Below, in pieces: positions 1 to 13,046 of a stretch of DNA of 13,046 nucleotides (the first letter of the stretch is position 1; each line of letters starts with the position of its first letter). Source of the stretch: a virus (taxonomy: Duplodnaviria > Heunggongvirae > Uroviricota > Caudoviricetes); IMG/VR virus record IMGVR_UViG_2657244971_000003. One strand, given 5' to 3'. A program made the translations under genes and the position numbers. Below the pieces are notes generated by a model. The model was not told the origin of the DNA. It saw only the letters and a program-made list of their open reading frames with translations, and made no database searches.

Positions 1-933
1 ATGGACAACGACAAAATTGATCAACACAGCGACGAAATTGAAGTTGAGAGCGAAGAAAAAGAGCGCGGCAAAAAAATAGAAATAGATGAAGACCGACTCC
101 CCTCCCGGGCGATGGCAATTCATGAGCATATCCGCCAGGATGGTGAAAAAGAGCTGGAACGCGACGCAATGGCGCTACTGTGGTCAGCCATTGCGGCGGG
201 TCTGTCGATGGGCGCTTCGTTACTGGCAAAAGGGATATTTCATGTCGAACTGGAAGGTGTGCCGGGCAGCTTCTTGCTGGAGAATCTCGGTTATACCTTT
301 GGTTTTATTATCGTCATTATGGCCCGCCAGCAATTATTTACCGAAAATACCGTGACTGCGGTACTACCCGTCATGCAAAAACCGACAATGAGCAACGTCG
401 GCTTACTTATACGGTTATGGGGCGTCGTGCTGCTGGGTAATATTCTCGGGACAGGTATTGCGGCGTGGGCATTTGAATATATGCCTATCTTCAATGAAGA
501 AACTCGCGATGCATTTGTCAAAATCGGCATGGATGTGATGAAGAACACCCCCAGCGAGATGTTTGCCAACGCGATCATTTCCGGCTGGCTGATCGCCACT
601 ATGGTTTGGATGTTTCCTGCAGCGGGTGCGGCAAAGATTGTGGTGATTATATTGATGACCTGGCTTATTGCCCTGGGTGACACCACCCATATCGTGGTCG
701 GTTCTGTTGAAATCCTCTATCTGGTGTTTAACGGTACGCTGCACTGGAGCGATTTCATCTGGCCCTTCGCACTACCTACTTTAGCGGGGAACATCTGCGG
801 CGGCACCTTTATCTTCGCGTTAATGAGTCATGCACAGATTCGTAACGACATGAGCAATAAGCGTAAAGCAGAAGCACGCCAAAAAGCAGAACGTGCGGAA
901 AACATTAAGAAAAATTATAAAAACCCGGCATAA
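1..933 (+). CDS. yfdC: Formate/nitrite transporter (FNT) family inner-membrane protein, complete 310 aa
   Basis: ORF starts at ATG at position 1 and ends at TAA 931-933. Translation has multiple hydrophobic helices and matches my recollection of E. coli YfdC, which sits immediately upstream of argW. Synteny with argW and intS supports this. Confidence 0.85.
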   Translation: MDNDKIDQHSDEIEVESEEKERGKKIEIDEDRLPSRAMAIHEHIRQDGEKELERDAMALLWSAIAAGLSMGASLLAKGIFHVELEGVPGSFLLENLGYTFGFIIVIMARQQLFTENTVTAVLPVMQKPTMSNVGLLIRLWGVVLLGNILGTGIAAWAFEYMPIFNEETRDAFVKIGMDVMKNTPSEMFANAIISGWLIATMVWMFPAAGAAKIVVIILMTWLIALGDTTHIVVGSVEILYLVFNGTLHWSDFIWPFALPTLAGNICGGTFIFALMSHAQIRNDMSNKRKAEARQKAERAENIKKNYKNPA

Positions 934-1008: not shown

Positions 1009-1083
1009 GTCCTCTTAGTTAAATGGATATAACGAGCCCCTCCTAAGGGCTAATTGCAGGTTCGATTCCTGCAGGGGACACCA
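1009..1083 (+). tRNA. argW: tRNA-Arg, anticodon CCU
   Basis: 75-nt cloverleaf read directly: acceptor GTCCTCT/AGGGGAC, anticodon stem AGCCC/GGGCT with loop CTCCTAA (anticodon CCT), T-arm GCAGG-TTCGATT-CCTGC, discriminator A and encoded CCA. A TATACT -10-like hexamer lies at 992-997. Confidence 0.9.
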
Positions 1084-1178
1084 TTTATCAGTTCGCTCCC
1101 ATCCGTACCAGTCCGCAAAATCCCCTGAATATCAAGCCTTCCGTAGATTAACAGTTCGTAATGGTTCGCGTCAGATCG

Positions 1179-1244
1179 TTGACAGCCGCACTCCATGACG
1201 GGTAAAAAGTGGATAAAATAATTTTACCCACCGGATTTTTACCC
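1179..1244 (+). promoter_or_regulatory. Putative intS promoter overlapped by a cluster of GGGTAAAA / TTTTACCC motif copies (candidate Int arm-type or RDF binding sites)
   Basis: Perfect TTGACA at 1179-1184. About 18 bp downstream is a weak -10-like TAAAAA (1203-1208) that sits inside GGGTAAAAA (1200-1208). A near copy GGATAAAAT (1211-1219) and two inverted copies TTTTACCC (1222-1229) and TTTTTACCC (1236-1244) end at the intS ATG. The same motif recurs at 9727-9747 beside the torI-like gene. Confidence 0.45.
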
Positions 1245-2393
1245 ATGCTCACCGTTAAGCAGATTGAAGCAGCAAAGCCGAAAGAAAAACCATACCGCCT
1301 ACTCGATGGTAATGGCCTGTACCTTTATGTCCCTGTGTCAGGGAAAAAGGTATGGCAGCTTCGCTACAAGATTGACGGTAAGGAGAAAATCCTGACCGTA
1401 GGAAAATATCCGCTAATGACTTTGCAGGAGGCAAGAGATAAAGCATGGACCGCGAGGAAAGACATCTCGGTTGGCATCGATCCGGTAAAAGCGAAAAAGG
1501 CTTCGTCTAACAACAATTCCTTTAGTGCCATTTACAAGGAATGGTACGAGCACAAGAAGCAAGTCTGGTCAGTAGGCTATGCAACTGAACTTGCCAAAAT
1601 GTTTGATGACGACATTTTACCCATCATCGGCGGTCTTGAGATTCAGGATATTGAGCCGATGCAACTGCTGGAAGTAATCCGCAGATTTGAAGATCGCGGT
1701 GCAATGGAGCGAGCCAACAAAGCCCGCAGAAGATGCGGCGAGGTTTTCCGTTACGCCATTGTCACTGGTAGGGCTAAATATAACCCGGCACCTGACCTTG
1801 CTGACGCCATGAAGGGATACCGCAAGAAAAACTTCCCGTTTCTTCCTGCAGACCAGATCCCGGCATTTAACAAAGCACTGGCAACATTTTCAGGAAGCAT
1901 CGTATCGCTCATTGCGACCAAAGTTTTACGCTACACAGCCCTAAGAACGAAAGAGCTTCGTTCCATGCAATGGAAGAACGTCGATTTTGAAAACAGGATT
2001 ATCACTATCGACGCCAGTGTGATGAAGGGACGCAAGATTCATGTTGTCCCGATGTCGGACCAGGTGGTTGAACTTCTCACTACGCTAAGCTCAATCACCA
2101 AACCAGTATCAGAGTTTGTTTTTGCCGGGCGCAACGATAAGAAGAAGCCAATCTGCGAGAACGCGGTGCTACTTGTGATCAAACAAATCGGCTATGAGGG
2201 TCTGGAAAGCGGTCACGGATTCAGGCATGAATTCAGCACGATTATGAACGAGCACGGCTGGCCTGCTGATGCTATAGAGGTTCAGCTAGCCCACGCGACC
2301 GGTGGATCTGTTCGCGGAATTTACAATCACGCACAGTACATGGAAAAACGCCGCGAGATGATGCAGTGGTGGGCTGATTGGGTTGATTTGTGA
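1245..2393 (+). CDS. intS: P4-family tyrosine integrase (IntS-like), 382 aa
   Basis: ATG at 1245, in frame within the tracked ORF 1209-2393 (which begins at a GTG). N-terminus MLTVKQIEAAKPKEKPYRLLDGNGLYLYV is typical of the P4-integrase arm-binding domain. C-terminal region has the tyrosine-recombinase signature (HGFRHEF ... RGIYNHAQY). Position directly downstream of argW matches the IntS arrangement. Confidence 0.85.
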   Translation: MLTVKQIEAAKPKEKPYRLLDGNGLYLYVPVSGKKVWQLRYKIDGKEKILTVGKYPLMTLQEARDKAWTARKDISVGIDPVKAKKASSNNNSFSAIYKEWYEHKKQVWSVGYATELAKMFDDDILPIIGGLEIQDIEPMQLLEVIRRFEDRGAMERANKARRRCGEVFRYAIVTGRAKYNPAPDLADAMKGYRKKNFPFLPADQIPAFNKALATFSGSIVSLIATKVLRYTALRTKELRSMQWKNVDFENRIITIDASVMKGRKIHVVPMSDQVVELLTTLSSITKPVSEFVFAGRNDKKKPICENAVLLVIKQIGYEGLESGHGFRHEFSTIMNEHGWPADAIEVQLAHATGGSVRGIYNHAQYMEKRREMMQWWADWVDL

Positions 2394-2398
2394 ACCAG

Positions 2399-4357
2399 TT
2401 AATTTCTCAAAATAATATTACCAGTGGAGACAAACGAGAATATGAAGTTCCCGCGCGGCGTTCCGCCACCGGATGTATTTTGCTTCGGAAAAACCTGGAT
2501 GGAACCGAGCGCTGACATCTGAAATGTAAATGCCGGGGTATCATTTGTTATTACACTATCCTCAATAAACGAAATAACAGAAATGTTACCTATAGTCCCA
2601 GCCGACCTTTTGTATAACAGCTCATATATTGCACACTTTGTCTTGCTTGAGTTGTAAACTTGGCATGTGATTTTACCTGCACAGGATGACGCCGCATCGT
2701 TATCACTGTACGTCCCAACACCGACAACAGTTTTTGCAATACCTGACTCAACACTAACGGCTAACTCATTAGATGACTGAGACGATAAATTGTTATATCT
2801 GTCAGTTGTCAGCTTTTGAGCTGTTGAAACATTATCGTCGAGGAGCCTGGAGGCTACTGAATCGGCCTTAATATGCACCCCGCGAGACTGGCAACGCCCA
2901 AAAACTGCTGCACCGCCAGCGATAGAGACGCCTTTATGCGGAATTGAGGACAGGTCAACGCTACCGAAGTATGTCCTGTTTCCGCCATCACCACCAACCC
3001 TCTCGTCTATATTTCCAGGAACGACCCCTGCATATACCGCGCCTGAACCCACATTAATATCTAATATGTTACGGGTTGGTTTCTCTGCTGAAATAGAACC
3101 ATCTGCAATAGTTATGTTAGCGTAAATATCAGATGTACTCTCTATTCTCACTGCACTTGACGGTTGCTGCTGCCCACAGAATGCTATTTGATTAGATCCT
3201 GATATATTTAATGCAGCAGCCTGCCGTATAAATATCGCCTCTCTTCCACCTTCAAAATAATTGTTCGCTCCACTTATGTTTACCCACGCTGCTTTATCTA
3301 CATACAAATGATTTGAATGCGTTTTTGTGTTTCTGTCGGAATGCATTAAGTTATCTGAATAAATAAGACCATCAAGCTGCTCTGCTATAAACCCACCGTA
3401 CCGAGTAAACCAACCACGATTATTAGTGAATTTAAAATCATTATAGGCATACGCATGAGCATTATCGTGTTTCAGCTCAACTAATTTCCCGACATTAATG
3501 GCTGTCATGTTATCGATAGTGATAAGGCCTATTGCGTGAAATGGTGTTGTTGCGTCTGCAATGCCTTTGATTGCACAATCAACTCGAGTTGCTTTGATGT
3601 TAATGAAATCTATAAACCTTCCCTTTTTCAGCTTAAACCCGTAGTCACCACCAGGGGCAGTAGATGTAATCCCTATACCGTCAATGGTTTTAAGGGCCTC
3701 CCCCCTGCCGTCATTAATGATAAATGACAAATCTTGCAGCCAGCCGCCGCCAACAATATCACACAGTCTAGTCACCTCAATTGAAGCGCCCCCAAATTTC
3801 AACACCCCGCTAATGCCTAAGATAACCCCTTCATCTGAACACTTATGAACTGCATCAAGCAGCTTTTGAGGATCATTAATCACAGAAAATGAAAGCCCGA
3901 AATCTCTTGCGTCAATAACGGCTCTGTTTTCCAGGGAGTCTTTTAGAGTTTTCCCTCCGCCAACGCCAATTAATGAGCCATCTCCTTTCTTTAACTCATC
4001 ACGGAATCGTATTTCAAACTGGTCTGGATCATATTTCAATACATTCGGAAAATAGAACTGCTGCGCACCATATGCATCATAAACAGCCATAGAATGGCCT
4101 TGCACAGTTACGAATTTGGCAATCTGCCCGTTATATACCGGATATCCAGCAGCATTGATAACAATTGGCTGAGAAACAGGGACGTGAGATCCGTCTTCAT
4201 TCTCTACATAAACCTGAATCTGGTTTTCAGTATTTACCGGGTCCGTGTCAATTTTACCGATATAAATTTTGCCATTGGCTACGGCTTTAAAAGAACGCGC
4301 CATAGTGAAGATTTGCGAAGGCATCGATATAATCACATTGGCTGTAATGTCTGTCAT
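2399..4357 (-). CDS. Podovirus tailspike protein: P22-gp9-like N-terminal head-binding domain fused to a divergent receptor-binding domain, 652 aa
   Basis: N-terminal ~120 aa ([42 protein letters not shown]...[13 protein letters not shown]...NVLKYDPDQ) closely resembles the P22 tailspike head-binding domain as I recall it. The rest is Gly/Asn/Ser-rich, as expected for a beta-helix. GGAG lies about 10 nt upstream of the ATG at 4357. Receptor specificity cannot be called from sequence. Confidence 0.85.
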
Positions 4358-4414
4358 TTAATTTGCTCCAGATACAAGGAATCACCGAAGCATGGCTACG
4401 GTGAATTTTGGGCA

Positions 4415-4439
4415 TAAAAAAACCCAGCCGAAGCTGGGT
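4415..4439 (-). terminator. Rho-independent terminator downstream of ant (minus strand)
   Basis: On the minus strand: GC-rich hairpin CCCAGC-TTCG-GCTGGG (plus-strand 4423-4438) followed by a run of 7 T (complement of the A-run at 4416-4422). Confidence 0.55.
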
Positions 4440-4457
4440 CGTTGCGTTGGTTATCTG

Positions 4458-5381
4458 TCAGTAGTTATGTACTGAAGGAGGTAATTCTTTATTCTTAAGT
4501 CTCATCCATGCGGAAAGATTCGTTGGTCCGTCTGGCTCATTAATATCAACATCTCGTGTGTGATTGATTAAAACGTCTCTCGCCATTCCGATAACATACG
4601 AGAACTCATGACCGTAGTCGTAGCATCTGCCTGAATAGTTCGATTGAATTTGTTTTAGCGCCGGATACAGTTCGCGGAATAATGCCTGTGAGCGGTTGGC
4701 ATAATCCCATAACCATACAAGGCTGTTTGCTTCTTTTGCAGAAAGCTCGTTTGCTTTCTTCTCTTGTTTGCCGATTAACTCGCCTTCAAGCGGAACGCGA
4801 GCTGCAAGTGACAGAGCTTCGGTAAACTGCTCATCGCTGATTTCTTTGTATGAACACCCAAAATGAGATTTCAGTGACGACCACATGGTAATCATTGCCT
4901 TCGCCTGTTTTTCTTTTGGCAGAGACTGACCGCGACTCATGACGAGTTGTTTAATGGCTTCCTGCTGTTCAGTGGTGATTTTACCCGGCAACGCCTTTTT
5001 AGCTTTGCGTGGGTTAACTACATGGCCTTTAGTCCAGTAGTCGTATAGCACATCGTCACACTCTTCTTGATACTGGATTACATTGTCGCGGATTTCAGGG
5101 CGGACTTTGTTAGGGCTGATGGTTTGCAACCAGCCATTCAGTTTACGTAAAGCAAGGCAAATCATGGTCTGCACACCGCCAACTGAAGGTATTGCGATTT
5201 CCACAATTCCTTTAGCAAATCTTTGTTTTAACTTTGTAAACTGTGAAGCCCAATCCATACCCATTCCCTCAACGATAGGTTTCATTGGGGTGTACGGTTC
5301 GCCGTTGTGATTGACAACATAAAGCTCTGCGCCGTGGAATGGCACGTTGATAGTAGATACTGCTGTTGCTATACTTTTCAT
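4458..5381 (-). CDS. ant: Phage antirepressor (Ant-like), 307 aa
   Basis: N-terminus [17 protein letters not shown]...[27 protein letters not shown] resembles antirepressor N-terminal domains as I recall them. It lies between an arc-like gene and the tailspike, the P22 immI order. AGGAAT lies about 8 nt upstream of the ATG at 5381. Confidence 0.8.
5347..5375 (+). promoter_or_regulatory. Candidate promoter for a sar-like antisense RNA, inside the first codons of ant on the opposite strand
   Basis: TTGATA (5347-5352), 17-bp spacer, TATACT (5370-5375). The predicted start near 5382 is immediately antisense to the ant start codon (5379-5381). Confidence 0.4.
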
Positions 5382-5456
5382 GTCGTTAATTCCTATGCGT
5401 GGTTTTACGATACCGAAGCCCTGACTGTTCCAGCAGTTGGGGCTTCAACTTTTTTG
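5382..5456 (+). ncRNA. Putative sar-like small antisense RNA (~75 nt) complementary to the ant ribosome-binding region
   Basis: Runs from the predicted start (~5382) across the complement of the ant Shine-Dalgarno and ends at a plus-strand terminator: extended imperfect hairpin GAAGCCCTGACTG / CAGTTGGGGCTTC (5415-5446) followed by TTTTTT (5450-5455). P22 has a short Sar antisense RNA at the analogous position. Predicted from motifs only. Confidence 0.4.
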
Positions 5457-5687
5457 TCCAGCTTGTCCGAGTAAAAATCCAGATACATGCTCTACTGACT
5501 GGTCAACCTCAATTTTTCTGCCAGAAGTTAATGTAATAAGCGCACAATCGTCACCTGTGCCCTCTACCAACTCAATGTTTTGGCGTCTTATGGTGTATGT
5601 CGTTTTGTTTTTTTCGAATCTAATCCGCCACCAATCACTTGTCCTTCTGCTTTCAAACTTTGTTTTAGTTAGGGTTATAAAGCTCAT
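5445..5687 (-). CDS. Hypothetical 80-aa protein inserted between arc and ant, translationally coupled to arc
   Basis: Its ATG (5685-5687) overlaps the arc-like stop TGA (5684-5686) as ATGA. No recognisable motif. Product MSFITLTKTKFESRRTSDWWRIRFEKNK... is basic at the N-terminus and acidic in the middle. Confidence 0.5.
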   Translation of the reverse strand: MSFITLTKTKFESRRTSDWWRIRFEKNKTTYTIRRQNIELVEGTGDDCALITLTSGRKIEVDQSVEHVSGFLLGQAGQKS

Positions 5688-5824
5688 ACCGTTATCCCCT
5701 CTCTCTTCAGGCTATCCATCACCCGTTTAATTACTTCTGCGCTAAATGAGCGACACTCTTCCTTTGCTTTCTCTTCAAGGATTTTTTCTAACTTCTCTGG
5801 CATACGCAGTGTTTTTACCTTCAT
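5684..5824 (-). CDS. arc: Arc-like ribbon-helix-helix repressor, 46 aa
   Basis: Hand-translated (below the 60-aa floor of the ORF track): MKVKTLRMPEKLEKILEEKAKEECRSFSAEVIKRVMDSLKREGITV. C-terminal half resembles the P22 Arc C-terminus (...QRVMESFKKEGRIGA). GGAGAA lies about 6 nt upstream of the ATG. It is divergent from a Mnt-like gene. Confidence 0.7.
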   Translation of the reverse strand: MKVKTLRMPEKLEKILEEKAKEECRSFSAEVIKRVMDSLKREGITV

Positions 5825-5929
5825 TGCATTCTCCGTTGTATGTGGTACGCATACATAGTATTTAGGTACGCATTGATAGTCAATAGATACCTACATATCC
5901 TGTGGTAAAAAATTATTCAGGATGTGCCG
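5825..5929. promoter_or_regulatory. Divergent immI-like promoter/operator region between arc and mnt
   Basis: A 105-bp gap between divergent RHH repressor genes. 9-bp direct repeats GGTACGCAT at 5844-5852 and 5865-5873 are spaced 21 bp apart. An imperfect inverted repeat TGTATG...CATACA lies around 5838-5856. TTGATA is at 5873-5878. Confidence 0.5.
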
Positions 5930-6181
5930 ATGTCTGATCGTAAGTACAAAAACCCTCAAGTGAATCTGAGGCTTCCTGTAGAGATAAAGGAACGTCTTAT
6001 TGAACTGGCTGAGGCTAATTCTCGTTCATTAAATGCTGAGATGGTCGCGGCACTTGAAGCGTGGACAGAAAAAAATAAACACATTCAAGCACTAGACCTT
6101 GCAACTATAGCATCACGATTGATAGATCTTGAACACGATGTTGAGACACTGAAAACCATGTATGGTAAGGATGCAAAATGA
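5930..6181 (+). CDS. mnt: Mnt-like ribbon-helix-helix repressor, 83 aa from the ATG
   Basis: The tracked ORF begins at GTG 5924, but the ATG at 5930 has AGGA 8 nt upstream. N-terminus (NLRLPVEIKERLIELAEANSRSLNAEMVAALEAW) follows the Arc/Mnt pattern. Orientation is divergent from arc-ant, as in P22 immI. Confidence 0.7.
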   Translation: MSDRKYKNPQVNLRLPVEIKERLIELAEANSRSLNAEMVAALEAWTEKNKHIQALDLATIASRLIDLEHDVETLKTMYGKDAK

Positions 6182-6387
6182 ATAAAAAACAGTTTATTAA
6201 GTCAAAAACGTCAAGCAAGGAAGAGCTAGAGAAAGAGCTAAACTCCCTGAAATATGCTCTGTGTCTGGTTTACTCAAGACTGCCAATGGAAGATAAAAAC
6301 GCCATTTACAATGAAATGATTAGCAGCCTTGATTTTAACGATAGAGACCTAGCATCCCACCTCAACAGCTTCCGCGTCCCTGAGTAA
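6178..6387 (+). CDS. Hypothetical 69-aa protein translationally coupled to mnt
   Basis: Its ATG (6178-6180) overlaps the mnt stop TGA (6179-6181) as ATGA. Lys/Glu-rich N-terminus. No recognisable motif. Confidence 0.5.
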   Translation: MNKKQFIKSKTSSKEELEKELNSLKYALCLVYSRLPMEDKNAIYNEMISSLDFNDRDLASHLNSFRVPE

Positions 6388-6547
6388 TTCTGTTGCGGAT
6401 TTGCTTCTTGCGGTGGTTTAGGCTGGAGAGCTTGGCTTCTGCTTCTGATATTTGCGCATCTAGATCTTTAAGCTCAAGATCTGAAAGTCGCTGGTCAAGC
6501 AGGGTTTGGTTCAACTCAATGTTGTTCAGGCGTTCTTCTATGGTCAT
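6362..6547 (-). CDS. Hypothetical small coiled-coil protein, 61 aa from ATG 6547 (tracked ORF extends to 6640)
   Basis: MTIEERLNNIELNQTLLDQRLSDLELKDLDAQISEAEAKL has a heptad-like Leu/Ile pattern. AGGA lies about 9 nt upstream of the ATG at 6545-6547. Its 3' end overlaps the preceding plus-strand ORF by 26 nt. It could be a chance ORF. Confidence 0.35.
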   Translation of the reverse strand: MTIEERLNNIELNQTLLDQRLSDLELKDLDAQISEAEAKLSSLNHRKKQIRNRITQGRGSC

Positions 6548-6578
6548 AACTTTCATCCTATAACTATTTGGAATTAAA

Positions 6579-6761
6579 ATGAAAAATATATTAATTGGTT
6601 TCGTTTTTGGTGCAGCCTGCGCCGCCAGCATTAGCGTCATAGCCGCTCAGATTGTTGGTGGTAACTCATATCTAATGGGCTATGACGTCATGATAAATGG
6701 AGAGGTTGTTTGCTCAGACCCTTATGTATGGACGTCGACAAAAGAAATAGAATGTGACTAA
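6579..6761 (+). CDS. Hypothetical small secreted protein or lipoprotein, 60 aa
   Basis: N-terminus [24 protein letters not shown] looks like a signal peptide with a possible lipobox-like Cys. Weak RBS. Same strand as mnt. Confidence 0.4.
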
Positions 6762-6814
6762 TACCAGCCTGATGGCTGGTTAATTTCGTCATGCTCAAAA
6801 CTAAGGAGGTTGGT

Positions 6815-7042
6815 GTGAAGCGATGGTTCCTCATAATTACTGTTTTCGCGATCATTTACACTATTTTCCCTGCATTAAAAGCACCAATGCAAATAATTTC
6901 ACTAGCAATAATTTCGATTGGTGCTTTCATTGCAGTAGCCGTACTTGTGTTTAAGGTTTTAAAGTTTTTAGTTTGGCTATCAAAAGATGATGGATGCAAA
7001 GTTCATCAAGAAAAAGAAGGCAAAATAACCAAAGTTGACTAA
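6815..7042 (+). CDS. Hypothetical small inner-membrane protein with two predicted transmembrane helices, 75 aa from GTG 6815
   Basis: AAGGAGG (6803-6809) lies 5 nt upstream of the in-frame GTG at 6815; the tracked ORF begins at ATG 6791 without an RBS. Two hydrophobic segments (WFLIITVFAIIYTIF and IISLAIISIGAFIAVAVLVF). Same strand as mnt, the position where P22-like phages carry exclusion genes. Confidence 0.5.
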   Translation: MKRWFLIITVFAIIYTIFPALKAPMQIISLAIISIGAFIAVAVLVFKVLKFLVWLSKDDGCKVHQEKEGKITKVD

Positions 7043-8718
7043 CTGTCACTAGCGAGCCATGTAATAATCCCCGTGCGGGCAATGGTTTTTGCTTCATCTG
7101 TTGATAAGGTTTTCTCCCATCTCTTAAATGCCCCAGATTGCATCAGTTTCCTTTCTATTGCGCGTCTCACTTCTGCTCTGTCTACTGGTGCGTTTTGCAG
7201 GCGAAATAGCATTGATTTAAACTCAGGAGAAGATAGCAGAGCATCAGCAGCCTTTATCCTGCTTGTTTTCCCTGACATCAATGCAGACGTTATCACCCCT
7301 GTTGCACCTACACCAGGGAGACCAGATAAGCTTGTAATACCTTCCGCCGCAGCAGCTTTTGAGGCTATTCCATAAATTTTTGCGAGACTACCCTTTTCTT
7401 TCAGAAAGTTATTAACTTGCTGATCCACAAGACTACTAGCATACTGCTTACCAGTATTGAGTCTATTCATAGCCTTAGCTGCTTGATAAATCGTATCAAG
7501 GCGCTTTGATGCATCTGTGCCAATAGCATCACGGAGAGCCTTCATATTGGCCCCATTGCGTGACATTCCGTTATACCATTTTACAAATCCATCAACTCCT
7601 AATTGCTGACCAGGTGATTTGGCATAGCTGGTAAATGCTTTATTCATTGAGGTGAGCGCAACTTCCTGCCGCATATCCTTTGGAATCGACTTCATTAATT
7701 GCCTAAAGTCGCCACCGTTTCCTTTTGCCATATTAACAACAGCACTTTCAACTTTTAGAATTGCTGATTGCTGAAGTTTTCTACCCAAGACGGTTACAGC
7801 ATCATCTTCAATGGATTTTCGTTTTTTTACCAACTCCTTACCAAGCGTCCATAATTCCCCTGCGCCATATTTTTCTGCGACAGCCTGTTGGTCATCTGTT
7901 ATGGCTGCATATAACTTTTTAAGAACACCTGTTTCTTCATCCTTGAATGGACCAGAGCCTTTGCCAATAGCTTGTCCAACCTGCTTTCTAGCGAGATCTA
8001 AACGCCCATACGTTGGCAAGGTGTTTGGATCAAGTCGGTTCAATGTCCGCTTCATTATTGGAGATAATTCATCAATTCCACCTATGTCATCAGCAAAATC
8101 CTCTAAAAAATTCAATGTATTAGTTGCCTCAATCCGGTCTCTTACAGGAACCTTTTCGGCAATTTTGTTGTAGATGTTATCTGACTGATTTTGTAATGAT
8201 GAAATGGTTTTATCAAAATTATCTGCAAGCCTGTCAGAAACCAGTTGCTTATCAAGGCTTCCCCCAAATGAAGTTATCATTTCATCAGCTTTTCTTCCTA
8301 ATTCAGTAATAAAACGCTTATGCGCCTCACTAATCTCTGTTCCAGGGAGACTTGCCACTGCATTATCAAGAGCCCTGACAGCAGGATTATTAGAGATCAT
8401 GCCTGGAGTGGCATAATTTTCCAGTTCTAGCTCACGAATAGCATTTATCGCGTTAAAATCAGGATTAACTTCATCGGCGAAATCTTGAATAGCTCGTTGC
8501 CCGCCGATAAATTTATTGTCCATTGCGCCAGTAGCTTTCTTTAACGTTGCTTTAGATGATTTACTACCCATCCCTACGGATGAGCGATAAATATCTCCGG
8601 CACTATTTTTAATTTTTCCTGCAATCTTCCCAAGCGCTGGACCAACAATCTCGGCTATCCGGTAACTCCGGATGGTTGGATAAGCTGTAGTGAGCAGATG
8701 CCTTCCGCAGGGGAACAA
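7039..8718 (-). CDS. P22 gp16-family DNA ejection/injection protein, probably 5'-truncated (possible pseudogene)
   Basis: Long, alpha-helix-rich, Ala/Lys-rich product. It sits upstream of the sieA/mnt-like region, where gene 16 lies in P22. The frame is open to 8718, where the tracked ORF begins at a TTG with no RBS; the first in-frame ATG (8569-8571) has only a weak RBS. Identity is from synteny and composition, not motif recognition. Confidence 0.55.
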   Translation of the reverse strand: MFPCGRHLLTTAYPTIRSYRIAEIVGPALGKIAGKIKNSAGDIYRSSVGMGSKSSKATLKKATGAMDNKFIGGQRAIQDFADEVNPDFNAINAIRELELENYATPGMISNNPAVRALDNAVASLPGTEISEAHKRFITELGRKADEMITSFGGSLDKQLVSDRLADNFDKTISSLQNQSDNIYNKIAEKVPVRDRIEATNTLNFLEDFADDIGGIDELSPIMKRTLNRLDPNTLPTYGRLDLARKQVGQAIGKGSGPFKDEETGVLKKLYAAITDDQQAVAEKYGAGELWTLGKELVKKRKSIEDDAVTVLGRKLQQSAILKVESAVVNMAKGNGGDFRQLMKSIPKDMRQEVALTSMNKAFTSYAKSPGQQLGVDGFVKWYNGMSRNGANMKALRDAIGTDASKRLDTIYQAAKAMNRLNTGKQYASSLVDQQVNNFLKEKGSLAKIYGIASKAAAAEGITSLSGLPGVGATGVITSALMSGKTSRIKAADALLSSPEFKSMLFRLQNAPVDRAEVRRAIERKLMQSGAFKRWEKTLSTDEAKTIARTGIITWLASDS

Positions 8719-8980
8719 GTGTTGGCGTACCGTCCAGACGCGCCGGAAAGTAATGATCCATTAATCAAGATGGCAACGTACGTTGGCGGGTCAGCACACG
8801 GACACGGCTTTGATTGCTACTGCAAGCCAACCCACTGGATGCCGCTGCCAGCAGCACCGCAGGAGGTGAACCGTGGCTAACCTGCAACTTGCCGTCAAAG
8901 GTGAATAACAATCCTCGCATTCGCGGGGATTTCTTTTATCTGAACTCGCTACGGCGGGTTTTGTTTTATGGAGATGATAA

Positions 8981-9148
8981 ATGCACTTTCGAGTCACAGG
9001 TGAATGGAATGGAGAGCCATTCAACAGGGTTATCGAAGCAGAGGACATCAACGACTGCTATAACCACTGGATGCTATGGGCGCAGATAGCACATGCAGAC
9101 GTAACCAATATTCGAATTGAAGAACTGAAAGAACACCAAGCCGCCTGA
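8981..9148 (+). CDS. Hypothetical 55-aa protein
   Basis: Hand-translated (below the ORF track floor): MHFRVTGEWNGEPFNRVIEAEDINDCYNHWMLWAQIAHADVTNIRIEELKEHQAA. GGAG lies 7 nt upstream of the ATG and a strong terminator follows directly. Confidence 0.5.
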   Translation: MHFRVTGEWNGEPFNRVIEAEDINDCYNHWMLWAQIAHADVTNIRIEELKEHQAA

Positions 9149-9161
9149 TGGCGGTTTTTTT
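9141..9161 (+). terminator. Rho-independent terminator
   Basis: CCGCC-TGAT-GGCGG hairpin followed by 7 T. The stop codon of the 55-aa ORF sits in the loop. Confidence 0.6.
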
Positions 9162-9172
9162 GGGGGTAGTAG

Positions 9173-9388
9173 ATGGCTGCAATTCACATTGTCTCAATAA
9201 TATGCAATGCAATTCAGATAGTTGCTTGCATTATCTTTGTTTTCTCAATTCTTCGCTCCCGACGATATTCTCCAGCAATTAACCGACATCCTGCACAGGT
9301 TGAAGCCGTCAGGATGGCTATAGAGTTACGAAATGAGATGAATAAGGCATTAATGGAGATGGAGAAACCATTCACTGACAAACATTAA
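9173..9388 (+). CDS. Hypothetical 71-aa protein with hydrophobic N-terminus
   Basis: ORF has an ATG start and a G-rich stretch upstream. N-terminal 25 residues are hydrophobic. No other support. Confidence 0.3.
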   Translation: MAAIHIVSIICNAIQIVACIIFVFSILRSRRYSPAINRHPAQVEAVRMAIELRNEMNKALMEMEKPFTDKH

Positions 9389-9466
9389 GAGTGGAAATAA
9401 AGAAATCACCCCGCCTCACACTCGATGAGGCATTTTCATTTATCAAGATATACAGACCTACCATCG

Positions 9467-9486
9467 CCGCATCAATGCGGTTTTTT
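9467..9486 (+). terminator. Putative rho-independent terminator just left of the 16-nt argW repeat
   Basis: CCGCA-TCAA-TGCGG hairpin followed by TTTTTT. Confidence 0.45.
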
Positions 9487-9496
9487 ATTGCCTGAT

Positions 9497-9512
9497 TTGC
9501 AGGTTCGATTCC
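9497..9512 (+). repeat. 16-nt direct repeat of the argW T-arm (TTGCAGGTTCGATTCC), candidate att core or att relic
   Basis: Exact 16/16 identity with 1054-1069 inside argW; flanking bases differ. The downstream sequence does not complete a T-stem, so it is not a tRNA. Confidence 0.6.
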
Positions 9513-9531
9513 CTATTCGGAGATAGCACTC

Positions 9532-9732
9532 ATGCAACACGAACTACAGCCTGATTCACTGGTTGATTTGAAATTCATCATGGCCGATACTGGCTTCGGT
9601 AAAACCTTCATCTACGACCGGATTAAGTCCGGCGACCTGCCAAAAGCCAAAGTTATCCACGGGCGAGCAAGATGGTTATATCGTGACCATTGTGAATTCA
9701 AAAATAAGCTCTTAAGCCGCGCTAATGGGTAA
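9532..9732 (+). CDS. torI: Excisionase / recombination directionality factor (TorI-like), 66 aa
   Basis: MQHELQPDSLVDLKFIMADTGFGKTFIYDRIKSGDLPKAKVIHGRARWLYRDHCEFKNKLLSRANG matches my recollection of E. coli TorI, the KplE1 excisionase. GGAGA lies about 8 nt upstream. The symbol is recalled, not searched. Confidence 0.7.
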   Translation: MQHELQPDSLVDLKFIMADTGFGKTFIYDRIKSGDLPKAKVIHGRARWLYRDHCEFKNKLLSRANG

Positions 9733-9747
9733 AATAGCGGGTAAAAT
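9727..9747 (+). promoter_or_regulatory. Tandem GGGTAAAAT motif copies near the right att site
   Basis: GGGTAAAAT at 9727-9735 and 9739-9747, overlapping the torI stop. The same motif clusters in front of intS at 1200-1244. Confidence 0.4.
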
Positions 9748-9805
9748 ATTTTTCACATCTAAAAAACACCATTCCAATCAATCCCCTGCTGCTTCAAGTA
9801 GATGT

Positions 9806-9818
9806 CTGCAGGGGACAC
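9806..9818 (+). repeat. 13-nt direct repeat of the argW 3' end (CTGCAGGGGACAC), candidate attR core of element A and relic attL of element B
   Basis: Exact 13/13 identity with 1069-1081. An 8-bp inverted partner TCCCCTGC sits at 9782-9789. Together with the 16-nt repeat it reconstitutes the argW 3' half (1054-1081), interrupted by about 293 bp that carry torI. Confidence 0.55.
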
Positions 9819-9932
9819 TTTAAAGACCTTTCTCTACATTTCACTTCATTACATAACCACTTAACAAAACAGTAAGTTATCACCGAATCGGCCTGATTTT
9901 CATTTCAGTTAATTTCATGACATTACAACCTC

Positions 9933-9981
9933 GTGATGGTATAAGTGATGGTATTCCCCAGTTCGATATGCAGATACCATC
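9933..9981. promoter_or_regulatory. Repeat cluster upstream of the second integrase (candidate arm-type or operator sites)
   Basis: Tandem direct 10-mers GTGATGGTAT at 9933-9942 and 9945-9954, plus an inverted copy ATACCATC at 9974-9981. Confidence 0.4.
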
Positions 9982-10004
9982 AATTTACCAAAATGAGTAC
10001 AGAT

Positions 10005-11279
10005 ATGGCCATTAATGTGCTTTCCCCCAAACAGATAGAAAACGCCAAGCCGAAGACCAATGATTACAAACTTACCGATGGAGGGAGTTTGTATCTACTG
10101 GTACGAAAGACTGGTGGAAAATACTGGCGTATGAATTATCGTTTTGATGGAAAACAAGTGACATTGGCATTAGGGGTCTACCCAGATGTCTCACTTGCAA
10201 CAGCGCGGAAACGGCGTGATGAAGCCAGGCAACTACTAGCCGATGGTCGTGATCCTCGCGAAGCAAAGAAACCCAAAAAGGAAGACCCAATTTCCCCCAC
10301 GTTCGAGAGTGTTGCCAGAGAGTGGCATAGTGGAACGATGGGGCATCCTGAGTGGAAAGAGATCACCCGTAAAAAAATTCTCCGAGAAATGGAAAACCAC
10401 CTCTTTCCTGCCATCGGTTCAAAGCCTATCGATACGCTCAAAACCCGTGACTTGATGCCGATGCTGGTTGAGATGACTGAGAAAGGAATTGGTGCCACAA
10501 CGAGCCGTGTAAAAACCACTATGACGAGCATCTTCCGTTATGCCGTGCAACGTGGAATTGTCGATTACAACCCTGCCCACGATCTAAAAGGTGCAATTAC
10601 GGCCCCCAAAGTACGACATCGCCCCGCACTACCTCTCGAACGTTTACCTGAACTGTTAGCGAAAACGAGAAGTTACACGGGAAGACCATTGACTCGCCTA
10701 GCAGTTCTCTTTTCCCTGCACACTTTTGTGCGATCCAGCGAACTACGACATGCCAGATGGGAGGAGATCGACATTGAAAATGGGCTATGGACGATACCAG
10801 GACAACGTGAAGAGATCGCAGGGGTTAAATTCTCAGATCGGGGTGCAAAGATGGGGGCTGCTCATTATGTCCCGCTATCTAGTCAGGCTATCGGGGTACT
10901 GGAGGATATAAGGAAAATCAGTGGTGAATATCTGCTGGTTTTTCCCGGTGACAGCAACCCATATAAACCGATGAGCGAAAACACAGTTAATAAAGCACTG
11001 CGAACGATGGGTTACGACACTCAAACTGATGTTTGCTTGCATGGGTTCAGGGCGATGGCCTGCTCTGCACTGACCGAATCAGGACTCTGGTCACGCGATG
11101 CAGTTGAACGGCAGATGAGTCACCAAGAAAGAAACGAAGTGCGGGCAGCATATGTGCATCTTGCGCAGCACATGCAGGAACGCCGCAGAATGATGCAATG
11201 GTGGTCTAATTATCTGGAACTAAATAAGGACGAATTCCATGCTCCTTATGACTTATCAGGTATTAACATTATCAATTAA
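10005..11279 (+). CDS. P4-family tyrosine integrase, about 424 aa
   Basis: N-terminus MAINVLSPKQIENAKPKTNDYKLTDGGSLYLLVRKTGGKYWRMNYRFDGKQ is the P4-integrase arm-binding domain pattern. Catalytic region has HGFRAMACS and RAAYVH. The start could instead be ATG 9993; the tracked ORF begins at GTG 9945 inside the repeat cluster. Confidence 0.8.
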   Translation: MAINVLSPKQIENAKPKTNDYKLTDGGSLYLLVRKTGGKYWRMNYRFDGKQVTLALGVYPDVSLATARKRRDEARQLLADGRDPREAKKPKKEDPISPTFESVAREWHSGTMGHPEWKEITRKKILREMENHLFPAIGSKPIDTLKTRDLMPMLVEMTEKGIGATTSRVKTTMTSIFRYAVQRGIVDYNPAHDLKGAITAPKVRHRPALPLERLPELLAKTRSYTGRPLTRLAVLFSLHTFVRSSELRHARWEEIDIENGLWTIPGQREEIAGVKFSDRGAKMGAAHYVPLSSQAIGVLEDIRKISGEYLLVFPGDSNPYKPMSENTVNKALRTMGYDTQTDVCLHGFRAMACSALTESGLWSRDAVERQMSHQERNEVRAAYVHLAQHMQERRRMMQWWSNYLELNKDEFHAPYDLSGINIIN

Positions 11280-11292
11280 ATACTCTTATAAT
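11263..11292 (+). promoter_or_regulatory. Candidate sigma70 promoter for the 293-aa orphan gene
   Basis: TTAACA (11263-11268), 18-bp spacer, perfect TATAAT (11287-11292). AGAGG RBS at 11300-11304. Confidence 0.45.
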
Positions 11293-11309
11293 TTAAAACA
11301 GAGGTCATA

Positions 11310-12191
11310 ATGCAGCATTCAACAGAGAATGAAACTATATTCTTAGGAAATCTATGGATTGACAAAAAAATACCACCATTAGAATATTGTTCATTTGAAC
11401 GCGCTTCAAGACTATTAGAATGCGAGATTGATGATTTATTACATCTATACGAAATAGGCGCTTTTAATATCGCATTCAAGGCGAATGGACTTGCAGTTAG
11501 ATTTAATGTTAATTTCCTCAATAAAAATCAGAAAATGGAAATTGACTTAATTCATCCCGTATTAACTAATCAATCACTAGAGATGGAATTTTCAACAATA
11601 TGGTATGACCTTAAAGATGATTCCTTTGAACATTTTGAAAATGGGCTTCAAATTATAGGATTTGCCTGTGGTATTTGGTACGCCGATGATATGATAAGTG
11701 ACATAAAAAATGGATTAGCTATAGATCCAGATTATGAATTCAGGCTTAAACCGGTAAAAATACGAGATAATGTTTTGATGGCAACGGCCTCATATGAAGG
11801 AAATAAGGTCATTGAGATTCCATTTGAAGATCTTCTTATCATGCGAAGAGATTTAGAGTTAATATGGAAATCAGTAAAAACTGGAATTCCTATGCCAAGT
11901 TTACTTACGAAAAGAATTTCATCTGAACCTAAAATCCCCAAGCGATTAAATAACACTGCTGAGCATCATGCAAAAAATAGGGAGGGGTTATTAAATGCAG
12001 CCATATATATATTAGCAAAATACCCAAGCGAATGTCGTGGTGAAAGAAAAGAGATAAGTCCTGAAAAGTGGACTAACGCCATAATTAAACATTTAGGAGA
12101 GCTACCTCCAATATTTATCACTAATGAACAAGAAATCTTAAGAAAATTACGATTAGCGGTTAATCATGCGGGATTAAAACAAAAGGGGTAG
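11310..12191 (+). CDS. Hypothetical 293-aa protein, strongly AT-rich, no recognisable domain; candidate accessory cargo
   Basis: Long ORF with a good RBS and its own promoter. It is visibly more AT-rich than the flanking integrase and alpA-like genes (judged by eye, not computed). I found no Walker A, clear nuclease or HTH signature by eye. Confidence 0.65.
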   Translation: MQHSTENETIFLGNLWIDKKIPPLEYCSFERASRLLECEIDDLLHLYEIGAFNIAFKANGLAVRFNVNFLNKNQKMEIDLIHPVLTNQSLEMEFSTIWYDLKDDSFEHFENGLQIIGFACGIWYADDMISDIKNGLAIDPDYEFRLKPVKIRDNVLMATASYEGNKVIEIPFEDLLIMRRDLELIWKSVKTGIPMPSLLTKRISSEPKIPKRLNNTAEHHAKNREGLLNAAIYILAKYPSECRGERKEISPEKWTNAIIKHLGELPPIFITNEQEILRKLRLAVNHAGLKQKG

Positions 12192-12293
12192 ACTGAAACA
12201 ATCTACAGGTAGAGTTGATTACACTACCTTCACAGCATTTTGATATCCCCATAGTATCTGCCGTGTTCATTACATAATACGGCAGGTAATTTC

Positions 12294-12509
12294 ATGACAT
12301 TAAAAACTTATCCTATCACTGGACATGCCCGCCCACGAGCTACTGCTGACTTTTTGCAAATAAGTACGGTTACTCTCTGGCGCTGGGAAAAGAACAATCC
12401 TGAATTTCCCAAATCTATACGCATTTCAAAACGGGTATCTGTTTACGATGCACAAGAAATTAGGCAGTGGGTTAAAGCTCAATCAGCAGGATTGGAGGAA
12501 GTAGTGTAA
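12294..12509 (+). CDS. AlpA-family phage regulatory protein / excisionase-like HTH protein, 71 aa
   Basis: ISTVTLWRWEKNNPEFPKSIRISKRVSVYDAQEIRQWV fits the AlpA/Xis-like winged-helix pattern. A hairpin CTGCCGT...ACGGCAG (12258-12285) lies just upstream. Confidence 0.65.
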   Translation: MTLKTYPITGHARPRATADFLQISTVTLWRWEKNNPEFPKSIRISKRVSVYDAQEIRQWVKAQSAGLEEVV

Positions 12510-12558
12510 TGACAATATTAACAAAGCTGGGGAGAAAAAAGCCTCCCCAACGTATTAA

Positions 12559-12753
12559 TCAATTCTTTGGTTCTAAACCTCGGCTTTGTAACTCTTTGCG
12601 TAGAATGCGCTTGATCCAAGCCGCTAGCGATTCATCGCCATCCTGCTGTTGTGCTTGTTCCATCAGTTCACGCAGTTCAGGGTCAAGTCGGAACTGGAAT
12701 GGCGGATTCCCACGTCTTTCATTTTTGTGTGTTGACACGTCAATTACACCCAT
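12559..12753 (-). CDS. Hypothetical small DNA-binding protein, possibly ribbon-helix-helix, 64 aa
   Basis: FQFRLDPELRELMEQA...SLAAWIKRILRKEL has a strand-helix-helix-like pattern. No clear RBS. It is divergent from the Icd-like ORF across an inverted-repeat region. Confidence 0.4.
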   Translation of the reverse strand: MGVIDVSTHKNERRGNPPFQFRLDPELRELMEQAQQQDGDESLAAWIKRILRKELQSRGLEPKN

Positions 12754-12766
12754 TGTAATGTATTTA

Positions 12767-12787
12767 TGTGTAATGACACATTACACA
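12767..12787. promoter_or_regulatory. Inverted repeat TGTGTAATG-ACA-CATTACACA, candidate operator
   Basis: 9-bp arms are perfect reverse complements with a 3-bp spacer. Related ATTACA/TGTAAT motifs occur at about 12741-12760, 12215-12222 and 12268-12275. Confidence 0.4.
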
Positions 12788-12869
12788 CAGAAAAACAAAA
12801 TAGCAACGCCCCGGAGTGTTTGCAGCAGCACCGAGGCGTCTGACCAGCACGTTATATGAGGTAACGAAG

Positions 12870-13046
12870 ATGGCTAAACAGAAGTGTACCTGGTTATTTG
12901 CGGCGATCAACCGCAGTCAACGCAATGCCCGTCCTGTGATGTTAAGGATCACCGCTGATAACGAACGATCAGCGCGGCGCAGACTTGCCCCGGACTATGT
13001 ACTGAGCTTTGCCGGGCGCATTCCCTGCGGAGGTGAACATGCGTAA
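12870..13046 (+). CDS. Small Icd-like protein (tentative), 58 aa
   Basis: ATG 12870 with GAGGT 7 nt upstream; the tracked ORF begins further upstream at 12816. MAKQKCTWLFAAINRSQRNARPVMLRITADNERSARRRLAPDYVLSFAGRIPC resembles my recollection of Icd-like small proteins in P4-family islands. The functional label is weak. Confidence 0.45.
   Translation: MAKQKCTWLFAAINRSQRNARPVMLRITADNERSARRRLAPDYVLSFAGRIPCGGEHA

Follow-up and report, generated by a model that had tools for sequence, protein, structure and literature searches.

The window analysed here (the whole 13,046-nt stretch of DNA, read on one strand) contains, with high confidence, two unrelated and independent site-specific elements lying in tandem at argW. 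Element B, at 1084-9818, comes first and is what deletion has left of a P22-like prophage of the HK620/Sf6 type, a defective remnant of 8.7 kb. Element A starts at 9819, runs on past the window and is a P4-like phage satellite whose integrase is of the P4 type. This tandem of prophage and satellite is real but of an ordinary, already documented type, tandem arrays at tRNA genes being well known. For annotation, two elements should be entered here in place of one large 'prophage', with boundaries at 1084 and 9818|9819 and a last one beyond the window. Features are listed in Table 1.

Composition of the two elements

P22-like (Lederbergvirus) traits of element B are the P22 head-binding domain of its tailspike and the immI genes ant, arc and mnt; complete virion, lysis, replication and immC modules are absent from the 8.7 kb that is left. 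Relative to a P22-like genome of 38-40 kb, some 30 kb is missing, comprising structural, lysis, replication and immC genes. The initial annotation had called this element a P22-family phage; the family assignment stands, but a defective remnant is not a phage. The deletion is marked by the 5'-truncated ejection gene, whose 99.2% identity to phages EC.P3 and E212 extends as far as 8657; phage matches cover 7039-8657 on one side and 8655/8658-9480 on the other, and E. coli matches likewise end at 8657.

Element B retains the whole recombination module of the KplE1 type: IntS, TorI, attL, attR and both arms. The IntS reading frame spans 1209-2393, with a likely start at ATG 1245 that gives 382 aa. 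IntS is transcribed away from attL and TorI adjoins attR, as in the KplE1/HK620/Sf6 module. The P' arm region is collinear with HK620 attP, the torI region is 98.4% identical to HK620 attP/hkaC, and joining the two ends of B in silico (9477-9818 + 1082-1244) reproduces the HK620 attP region at 497/505 positions without gaps. The arm-type repeat GGGTAAAA has seven matches in the window against 0.49 expected, and five of the seven fall at one or other end of B.

Of element A, the window contains only the left 3.2 kb, the right end lying outside. Over this 3.2 kb the copy in comparison sequence L001 is 99.9% identical to the window, and it continues with genes for a Zn-ribbon/Toprim/DUF927 primase, a Sid-like protein, Psu and Ogr/Delta; small ORFs of L001 had no Pfam match, and none was identified as epsilon. 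In L001 and L002, both near-identical copies, A terminates on the right in the tDNA fragment TTCGATTCCTGCAGGGACACCA, beside native flank in L001. The integrase ORF of A spans 9945-11279, and in RefSeq copies the start is the ATG corresponding to 10005, which gives 424 aa. The 293-aa cargo ORF behind it found no match in Pfam, PHROGs, PADLOC or NCBIfam.

Table 1. Features of the argW region, with positions in the window
Feature	Position	Strand	Evidence or remark
yfdC	1..933	+	Left chromosomal flank; 100% identical to yfdC in many E. coli genomes; RefSeq annotation in L001, L003
argW, tRNA-Arg(CCT)	1009..1083	+	Intact, CCA encoded; 3' end is attL of B; ARAGORN
attL core of B, CTGCAGGGGACACCAT	1069..1084	+	16/16 to KplE1 core (PMC2951348)
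P' arm of B and intS promoter region	1085..1244	+	GGGTAAAA arm-type repeats 1200-1207 (+), 1222-1229 (-), 1237-1244 (-)
intS, HK620/Sf6/KplE1-type tyrosine integrase	1245..2393	+	98% identical to HK620 Int; Pfam domains
P22-type tailspike	2399..4357	-	N-terminal head-binding domain kept; PF09008, E = 5.8e-65
Antirepressor Ant (immI region)	4458..5381	-	P22_AR_N and P22_AR_C
Arc-like repressor gene	5684..5824	-	ORF; L003 annotates Arc family protein at same place
Mnt/Arc-like repressor gene	5924..6181	+	Pfam Arc, E = 3.3e-10; divergent from 5684-5824 ORF
DNA-transfer/ejection protein gene, 5'-truncated	7039..8657	-	Matches phrog_6704 positions 168-707 of 707
Deletion junction of B	8657..8658	.	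Phage matches on either side from different genome regions
Early-left (ead/eag) gene remnant	8658..9480	+	Matches to HK022, Sf101, IME10; PHROG matches
torI, excisionase (recombination directionality factor) of B	9532..9732	+	Same gene annotated TorI in L002-L004, L006, L012
P arm of B	9733..9805	+	Two direct GGGTAAAA repeats, 9727-9734 and 9739-9746; first overlaps torI end
Displaced tRNA 3' fragment CTGCAGGGGACAC, 13 nt	9806..9818	+	Double role: attR core of B, attL core of A
P' arm of A	9819..10004	+	TGATGGTAT at 9935-9942, 9947-9954 (direct, 12-nt period), 9974-9981 (inverted)
P4-type integrase of A	10005..11279	+	P4 Int match at 52.3% identity, covering 96% of its length; Pfam
Cargo ORF of A, 293 aa	11310..12191	+	Low GC, 0.31-0.36
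alpA-family regulator of A	12294..12509	+	PF05930, E = 1.6e-7
Small Arc-like/RHH protein of A	12559..12753	-	phrog_228, E = 8.9e-6
Icd-like cell division inhibitor gene of A	12870..13046	+	NF033153, E = 5.5e-24; L001 annotation; A runs on past window

Attachment cores and integrases at argW

The only tRNA found in the window by ARAGORN is tRNA-Arg(CCT). The window contains exactly two copies of its 3' segment CTGCAGGGGACAC, one within the tRNA (1069-1081) and one at 9806-9818, against a calculated chance expectation of ~4e-4 exact 13-mers on both strands; with upstream bases included, tRNA and remnant match at 16/18 positions (repeat family D13). The attR core of B shares the first 13 of 16 bases with attL and then reads TTT for CAT (14/16 positions matching), because satellite sequence adjoins (ACAC|TTTAAAG) where native flank would be. 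The remnant, and the position of an IntS-type integrase after the tRNA, had both been proposed at the outset and agree with the ARAGORN result, the CTGCAGGGGACAC duplication and the identity to HK620 Int. The second integrase had been placed about 130-190 nt past the remnant, and the distance is indeed 186 nt (ATG 10005), 174 nt (ATG 9993) or 126 nt (GTG 9945), depending on the start codon. The integrases of A and B both recombine within the last ~20 nt of argW, and the identity blocks of the two elements overlap by 13 nt, CTGCAGGGGACAC, which is exactly what persists at the B|A junction. The region thereby offers a clean natural example of two tyrosine integrases of the same broad family with one tRNA target and overlapping cores.

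Both integrases carry Arm-DNA-bind_3, Phage_int_M and Phage_integrase domains. They are 31% identical overall and 46% identical in the N-terminal arm-binding domains, the best conserved part, and these domains are, judged by sequence, homologous. The initial annotation had reasoned from different N-termini to different arm sites; its premise is weak, the apparent N-terminal difference lying in in-frame upstream ORF extensions, but its conclusion is supported by the distinct repeats GGGTAAAA and TGATGGTAT, which point to different arm sites for the two integrases. All three window matches of TGATGGTAT lie inside the P' arm of A, in the geometry of the annotated P4 attP arm repeats. Given these intact parts, we infer that IntS with TorI, and the integrase of A with AlpA, can probably each still excise only their own element.

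At the satellite ends, attR always reads GGG and attL reads GGGG in diverged variants, the G count segregating with the left flank. Strand exchange by the satellite integrase would therefore most simply take place inside GGGACAC. Searches of viral and metagenome contigs yielded no free attP form of A, so the argument for GGG in attP is indirect. A crossover in the T loop (identity block with its left edge at TTCGATT), by which the phage would lock the satellite in and satellite-first order would be mandatory, was considered and dropped on the GGG/GGGG pattern. The satellite identity block ends at C74, so that in satellite-only strains the regenerated tRNA gene has no encoded CCA.

With their att cores staggered on the same 13 nt, A and B may affect each other and the tRNA, an idea that we regard as quite improbable. 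The satellite attP would carry a one-base-deleted copy of the T-arm, in keeping with the GGG at every attR examined, and exchange would occur at the very 3' end; satellite integration would strip the encoded CCA from argW and a later HK620-type phage would re-supply it. If this were true, each element would influence the mobility of the other and the order of the array, and past interplay between A and B could have left its trace in the T-arm 16-mer that lies upstream of torI. That 16-mer, at 9497-9512, was also considered as a third att remnant, left by another integration, and rejected, being a conserved piece of the HK620/Sf6 torI upstream region. HK620-type phages carry this argW T-arm 16-mer upstream of torI, and in tRNA coordinates it exactly abuts the core. 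CCA loss in satellite-only strains, GGG at the satellite attR and the T-arm 16-mer are small testable points, not discoveries.

Occupancy of argW and order of arrival

Configurations at argW were counted in 5,426 complete E. coli genomes. The site was empty in 1,471, A stood alone directly at argW in 62, a B-type left arm lay beside the tRNA in ~1,870, and the B|A junction of the window was present in 10 genomes, which bear different B prophages; the reverse A|B junction was found in none of the 5,426. A B-type element alone beside native flank is present in L003, and B-type prophages were also found in front of a diverged member of the A family and in front of another kind of P4-like satellite. 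Since A and B thus occur separately and together in other genomes, the elements are independent, and the proposal in the initial annotation of two separate integrative elements at argW, each with its own integrase, is borne out by the single-element genomes and by the recurrent B|A junction. The satellite tRNA|A junction was not found in one-genome-per-species GTDB contigs, a result of little weight because E. coli is represented there by a single genome. Single and double occupancy states of argW are all present in public genomes for comparison.

Satellite A probably arrived at argW first, and phage B would then have entered the satellite-regenerated tRNA. This order is the conventional and somewhat favoured reading, plausible but not decided by sequence alone, and the junctions cannot prove it, since both orders predict identical junctions. 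The opposite order, in which phage B came first and satellite A later entered the displaced tRNA fragment at the attR of B and not the intact tRNA, is somewhat unlikely. If the overlap used by A is GGGACAC, a B-only attR (…GATGT CTGCAG GGGACAC CAGATACC) would be a near-perfect target and the products would equal those seen; B is also heavily decayed, and A is 99.9% identical to copies elsewhere. Against this, A could enter the intact tRNA of a B lysogen to give tRNA-A-B, an order seen in 0 genomes, whereas B|A is seen in 10; genomes with A alone outnumber the tandem sixfold; and the same A stands behind no fewer than three different B prophages, as would follow most simply from repeated entry of common B phages into strains that already bore A.

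A history in which the array was imported or reshuffled by homologous recombination, through transfer of an argW-spanning segment or replacement of B by a related phage, is unlikely. In its favour, yfdC diverges by 1.8% between window and L001, against only 0.1% for A; mosaicism is strong in P22-like prophages, and the matches of complete E. coli genomes all stay below 80% of the window. The junctions, however, are precise site-specific junctions, and recombination of this kind bears on history only, leaving the identity of both elements unchanged. A single composite element, in which the left prophage carries the second integrase and adjacent genes as cargo and moves with them, would fit the contiguity and common tRNA target of the two parts but is extremely improbable, being refuted by the single-element genomes: A sits alone at argW with its own attR, B-type elements sit alone beside native flank, the HK620 and Sf6 virion genomes have the B module without A, and a displaced tRNA fragment separates A from B. 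The initial annotation would have been refuted by one contiguous element in related genomes, which is not what these genomes show.

Relation to known systems

The closest counterparts of B are the defective prophage KplE1 (CPS-53) of E. coli K-12 and, also at argW, the recombination module of HK620, Sf6 and CUS-3. KplE1 shares with B the tRNA target argW and the 16-nt attL core, and is likewise a short remnant with the whole recombination module. The P' sites of KplE1 share TAAA, which is also present in the arm repeats of B, and excision of KplE1 in vivo was shown experimentally to depend on IntS and TorI (PMC2951348). B is nevertheless an independent deletion derivative: it keeps the tailspike, ant, arc/mnt and a truncated ejection gene; no gtr genes were found in it; and its attR core is followed by satellite DNA instead of native flank, with only 13/16 core bases duplicated.

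P4-like satellites use P2-like helpers, and the prophage remnant is presumably paired with satellite A here without any helper relationship. P4-like traits of A are a P4-family Int, AlpA and an Icd-like protein, to which full copies add an alpha-type primase and Sid-like, Psu and Delta proteins. P4 and A have a similar att architecture, in which one side has a tandem pair of arm repeats spaced by 12 nt and the integrase side has a tandem pair together with one inverted copy; they differ in target (leuX in P4, argW in A) and in arm motif (GGGGGCA in P4, TGATGGTAT in A). The gene order in L001 (int, alpA, icd, primase, sid-like, psu, delta, all co-directional on one strand, unlike in P4) is not the canonical P4 order (int, psu, delta, sid, alpA, epsilon, alpha). 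P4 and P4-like satellites have been treated by Moura de Sousa and Rocha 2021 (PMC8628076) and Rousset et al. 2022 (PMC9122126).

The argW-dsdCXA island is a documented variable site, according to the citation of Moritz and Welch 2006 in PMC2808357. Islander recorded 125 tandem arrays of genomic islands at tRNA genes (PMC4383910). As in those arrays, A and B each have their own integrase and their own tDNA fragment in the same orientation (that of A lying in L001 and L002), and each occurs independently; the B|A tandem differs from them in nothing of kind and adds one more example.

Two separate elements at argW

The sole tRNA of the window, tRNA-Arg(CCT) (1009-1083, ARAGORN), lies downstream of yfdC (1-933), which has 100% identity with many E. 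coli genomes, and the locus was therefore assigned to E. coli argW, a site already documented as variable (PMC2808357). The 13-mer CTGCAGGGGACAC occurs exactly twice in the window, inside the tRNA (1069-1081) and as a displaced remnant (9806-9818), which matches the tRNA at 16/18 positions when upstream bases are included. Element B (1084-9818), an HK620/Sf6-type P22-like prophage, ends at this remnant and is followed by element A (9819 onward), a P4-like satellite. The initial annotation had described two stacked elements at argW, and its coordinates and spacing were correct, the ATG of the second integrase lying 186 nt past the remnant.

Configurations at argW were counted among 5,426 complete E. 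coli genomes. The empty site (tRNA and native flank) was found in 1,471, a B-type left arm adjoining the tRNA in about 1,870, the tRNA joined directly to A in 62, and a B-then-A junction identical to that of the window in 10. The two elements, each with its own integrase, are separate: A is found alone in the 62 genomes, and B in L003, a locus with a B-type remnant alone and native flank after its attR. A single composite element, the possibility set beforehand for checking, is refuted by the genomes carrying only A or only B and by the different B prophages found ahead of the same A.

Arm-DNA-bind_3, Phage_int_M and Phage_integrase domains are common to both integrases. IntS, the integrase of B, has 98% identity with that of phage HK620; the integrase of A has 52.3% identity to that of satellite phage P4 over 96% of its length and only 31% overall to IntS. 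The best conserved segment between the two is the N-terminal arm-binding domain (46% identity over 85 aa), which is homologous. The N-terminal sequences had been described as different, a weak premise that probably reflects in-frame stretches preceding ATG 1245 and ATG 10005 that are not translated; the use of different arm sites, claimed with it, still holds because the repeat motifs of A and B are unrelated.

Gene content and ends of the elements

Coordinates of the array features (window positions unless a locus is named; L001, E. coli Z1323HEC0108, A alone at argW; other loci from further E. coli genomes)
Feature	Coordinates	Remarks
IntS ORF (B)	probable start ATG 1245, end 2393	3' of tRNA
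Integrase ORF (A)	start ATG 10005 by RefSeq copies, end 11279	3' of remnant
P22-type tailspike (B)		head-binding domain E = 5.8e-65
Antirepressor Ant (B)		
Arc- and Mnt-like repressors (B)		
Ejection/DNA-transfer gene (B)		5' end missing; covers profile positions 168-707 of 707
Arm-type repeat GGGTAAAA (B)	1200, 1222, 1237	attL
Arm-type repeat GGGTAAAA (B)	9727, 9739	attR
293-aa ORF (A)	11310-12191	no family match; between integrase and alpA
AlpA-family gene (A)		downstream of integrase
Small RHH gene (A)		downstream of integrase
Icd-like gene (A)		downstream of integrase
Arm repeat TGATGGTAT (A)	9935, 9947	two direct copies 12 nt apart
Arm repeat TGATGGTAT (A)	9974	one inverted copy ahead of integrase gene
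Arm repeat TGATGGTAT (A)	near right end of L001	two direct copies, 12-nt spacing
GGG in displaced tRNA fragment, satellite right end	L001 23592-23613; L002 31997-32018; L009, L010, L011, L012	

Between a point upstream of torI and the core, B has 98-99% identity with HK620 and Sf6, and the attP core is annotated there in the records of both phages. In-silico excision, joining 9477-9818 to 1082-1244, gave a sequence matching the HK620 attP region without gaps at 497/505 positions, and the ends of B are thus precise and intact. The arm-type repeat of B occurs seven times in the window (0.49 expected), with five of the copies at the ends of the element. Phage matches for 7039-8657 and for 8658-9480 derive from distant genome regions, which places a deletion junction between 8657 and 8658. 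At this junction an ead/DUF551 fragment adjoins the ejection protein gene, whose 5' end is lost. B comprises 8.7 kb left of a genome normally of 38-40 kb. It is a defective prophage and in this resembles KplE1/CPS-53 of K-12, for which excision by IntS and TorI has been published and whose published core is CTGCAGGGGACACCAT, with TAAA common to the integrase arm sites (PMC2951348; PMC3509656). An assignment of B to a P22-family phage is borne out by its P22-like genes (tailspike, Ant, Arc/Mnt), the element itself being a remnant rather than a phage. At ≥80% coverage the window was found in 0/5,426 complete E. coli genomes, and the absence of the B remnant from them at this threshold is strain-level variation. 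In the related remnant L003 no match was found to the tailspike's receptor-binding C-terminal portion (2399-4021); only its head-binding end and the genes downstream could be aligned, a pattern consistent with the exchange of specificity domains that is common in tailspikes.

L001 carries a copy of 9806-13046 (99.9% identity) directly at argW, which continues through DUF5375, Zn-ribbon/Toprim/DUF927 primase, Sid-like, Psu, Ogr/Delta and two unknown ORFs and terminates at TTCGATTCCTGCAGGGACACCA, adjoining native flank. From the P4-like integrase, the gene content and the end of this copy, A was identified as a P4-like satellite of about 11.6 kb, its left 3.2 kb lying in the window. In L001 (12200-23613) int, alpA, icd, primase, sid-like, psu and delta are co-directional, with the two unknown ORFs before attR, unlike the usual order in P4 (int, psu, delta, sid, alpA, epsilon, alpha). 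The arm repeats of A equal those of the P4 record in number, spacing and core distance; the P4 motif differs (GGGGGCA). The 293-aa ORF, where the GC content of the window is lowest (0.31-0.36), had no match in Pfam, PHROGs, PADLOC or NCBIfam, is interrupted by an IS1 insertion in strain E41 and is likely accessory cargo. One copy of a 26-nt repeat, CAGTTAATTTCATGACATTACAACCT (23/26 identical), precedes the satellite integrase within the P' arm (9906-9931) and the other straddles the alpA start codon (12283-12308); the repeat may be a regulatory or translation-initiation element common to both genes.

All parts of the array are of known kinds: the argW recombination module has been studied in detail (PMC2951348, PMC3509656) and P4-like satellites have been catalogued in thousands (PMC8628076). 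The finding holds and is of use to annotators, without being surprising.

Overlapping attachment cores

In all sequences compared, the P arm of B extends to CTGCAGGGGACAC. Past this 13-mer, HK620 attP reads CATTTATC, the sequence 3' of the tRNA in the window; the B-only genome reads native flank, CAGATACC; and the window at the attR of B reads TTTAAAGA, which is element A. Where A occurs alone, the sequence of the tRNA itself is …GGGGACAC followed by TTTAAAG, and the core of B is matched there at 14/16 positions. A has the identity block TTCGATTCCTGCAGGG(G)ACAC and B has CTGCAGGGGACACCAT; the two overlap by the 13 nt remaining at the B-then-A junction.

At five A-family right ends (L001, L009-L012) attR always has GGG and the tRNA side GGGG, a split that persists although the adjoining arm is only 85-90% identical and one integrase only 76% identical. 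The simplest reading is that the GGG, a one-base deletion, belongs to the satellite attP, which suggests strand exchange to its right, in GGGACAC. Searches of viral and metagenome contigs found no free satellite attP.

E. coli tRNA genes normally encode CCA. In satellite-only genomes (L001 11941-12020; window 9806-9825) argW is without encoded CCA (RefSeq annotates 72 nt), so these strains would rely on trimming of the 3' end and on the CCA-adding enzyme to mature this tRNA; in the window CCA (1081-1083) is re-supplied by the HK620-type element. Upstream of torI, the 16-mer TTGCAGGTTCGATTCC (9497-9512) duplicates the argW T-arm without mismatch (compare 1054-1069) and is kept in HK620 and every B-type locus examined; the HK620 record annotates a cII-activated integration promoter at this 16-mer. 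It stops at tRNA base C1069, the same base where the att core starts, and the two pieces read as a single tRNA 3' half separated by 293 nt (torI and the P arm).

Order of arrival

Two orders were compared: A first, with B later entering the regenerated tRNA, as the initial annotation had proposed, and B first, with A entering the attR of B. Both crossovers lie inside the shared 13 nt and give identical junctions either way, so the order cannot be told from the sequence. Arrival of A first is nonetheless the reading we favour, with moderate confidence, because the A-then-B junction was found in 0/5,426 complete E. coli genomes, genomes with A alone outnumber the tandem sixfold, and the same A stands behind several different B prophages (full-length and mutually unlike in L002 and L004, a remnant in the window). 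With its GGG, the attR of A is also a poor secondary target for IntS, and this would account for B always being placed next to the tRNA. Related arrays include EC1515 (L012), where a B prophage precedes a diverged satellite of the A family (Int 76% identical) at the junction CTGCAGGGGACA followed by ATACC, and ST131 strains (L006 16001-27100), where a different P4-like satellite (Int 40% identical) carrying sce7725/sce7726 cargo comes after an HK620-type prophage. The reverse order was seen in S1-NGR-02-A (L007 1-14200), where an Ag43/YeeU-type island lies between the tRNA and an intS remnant.
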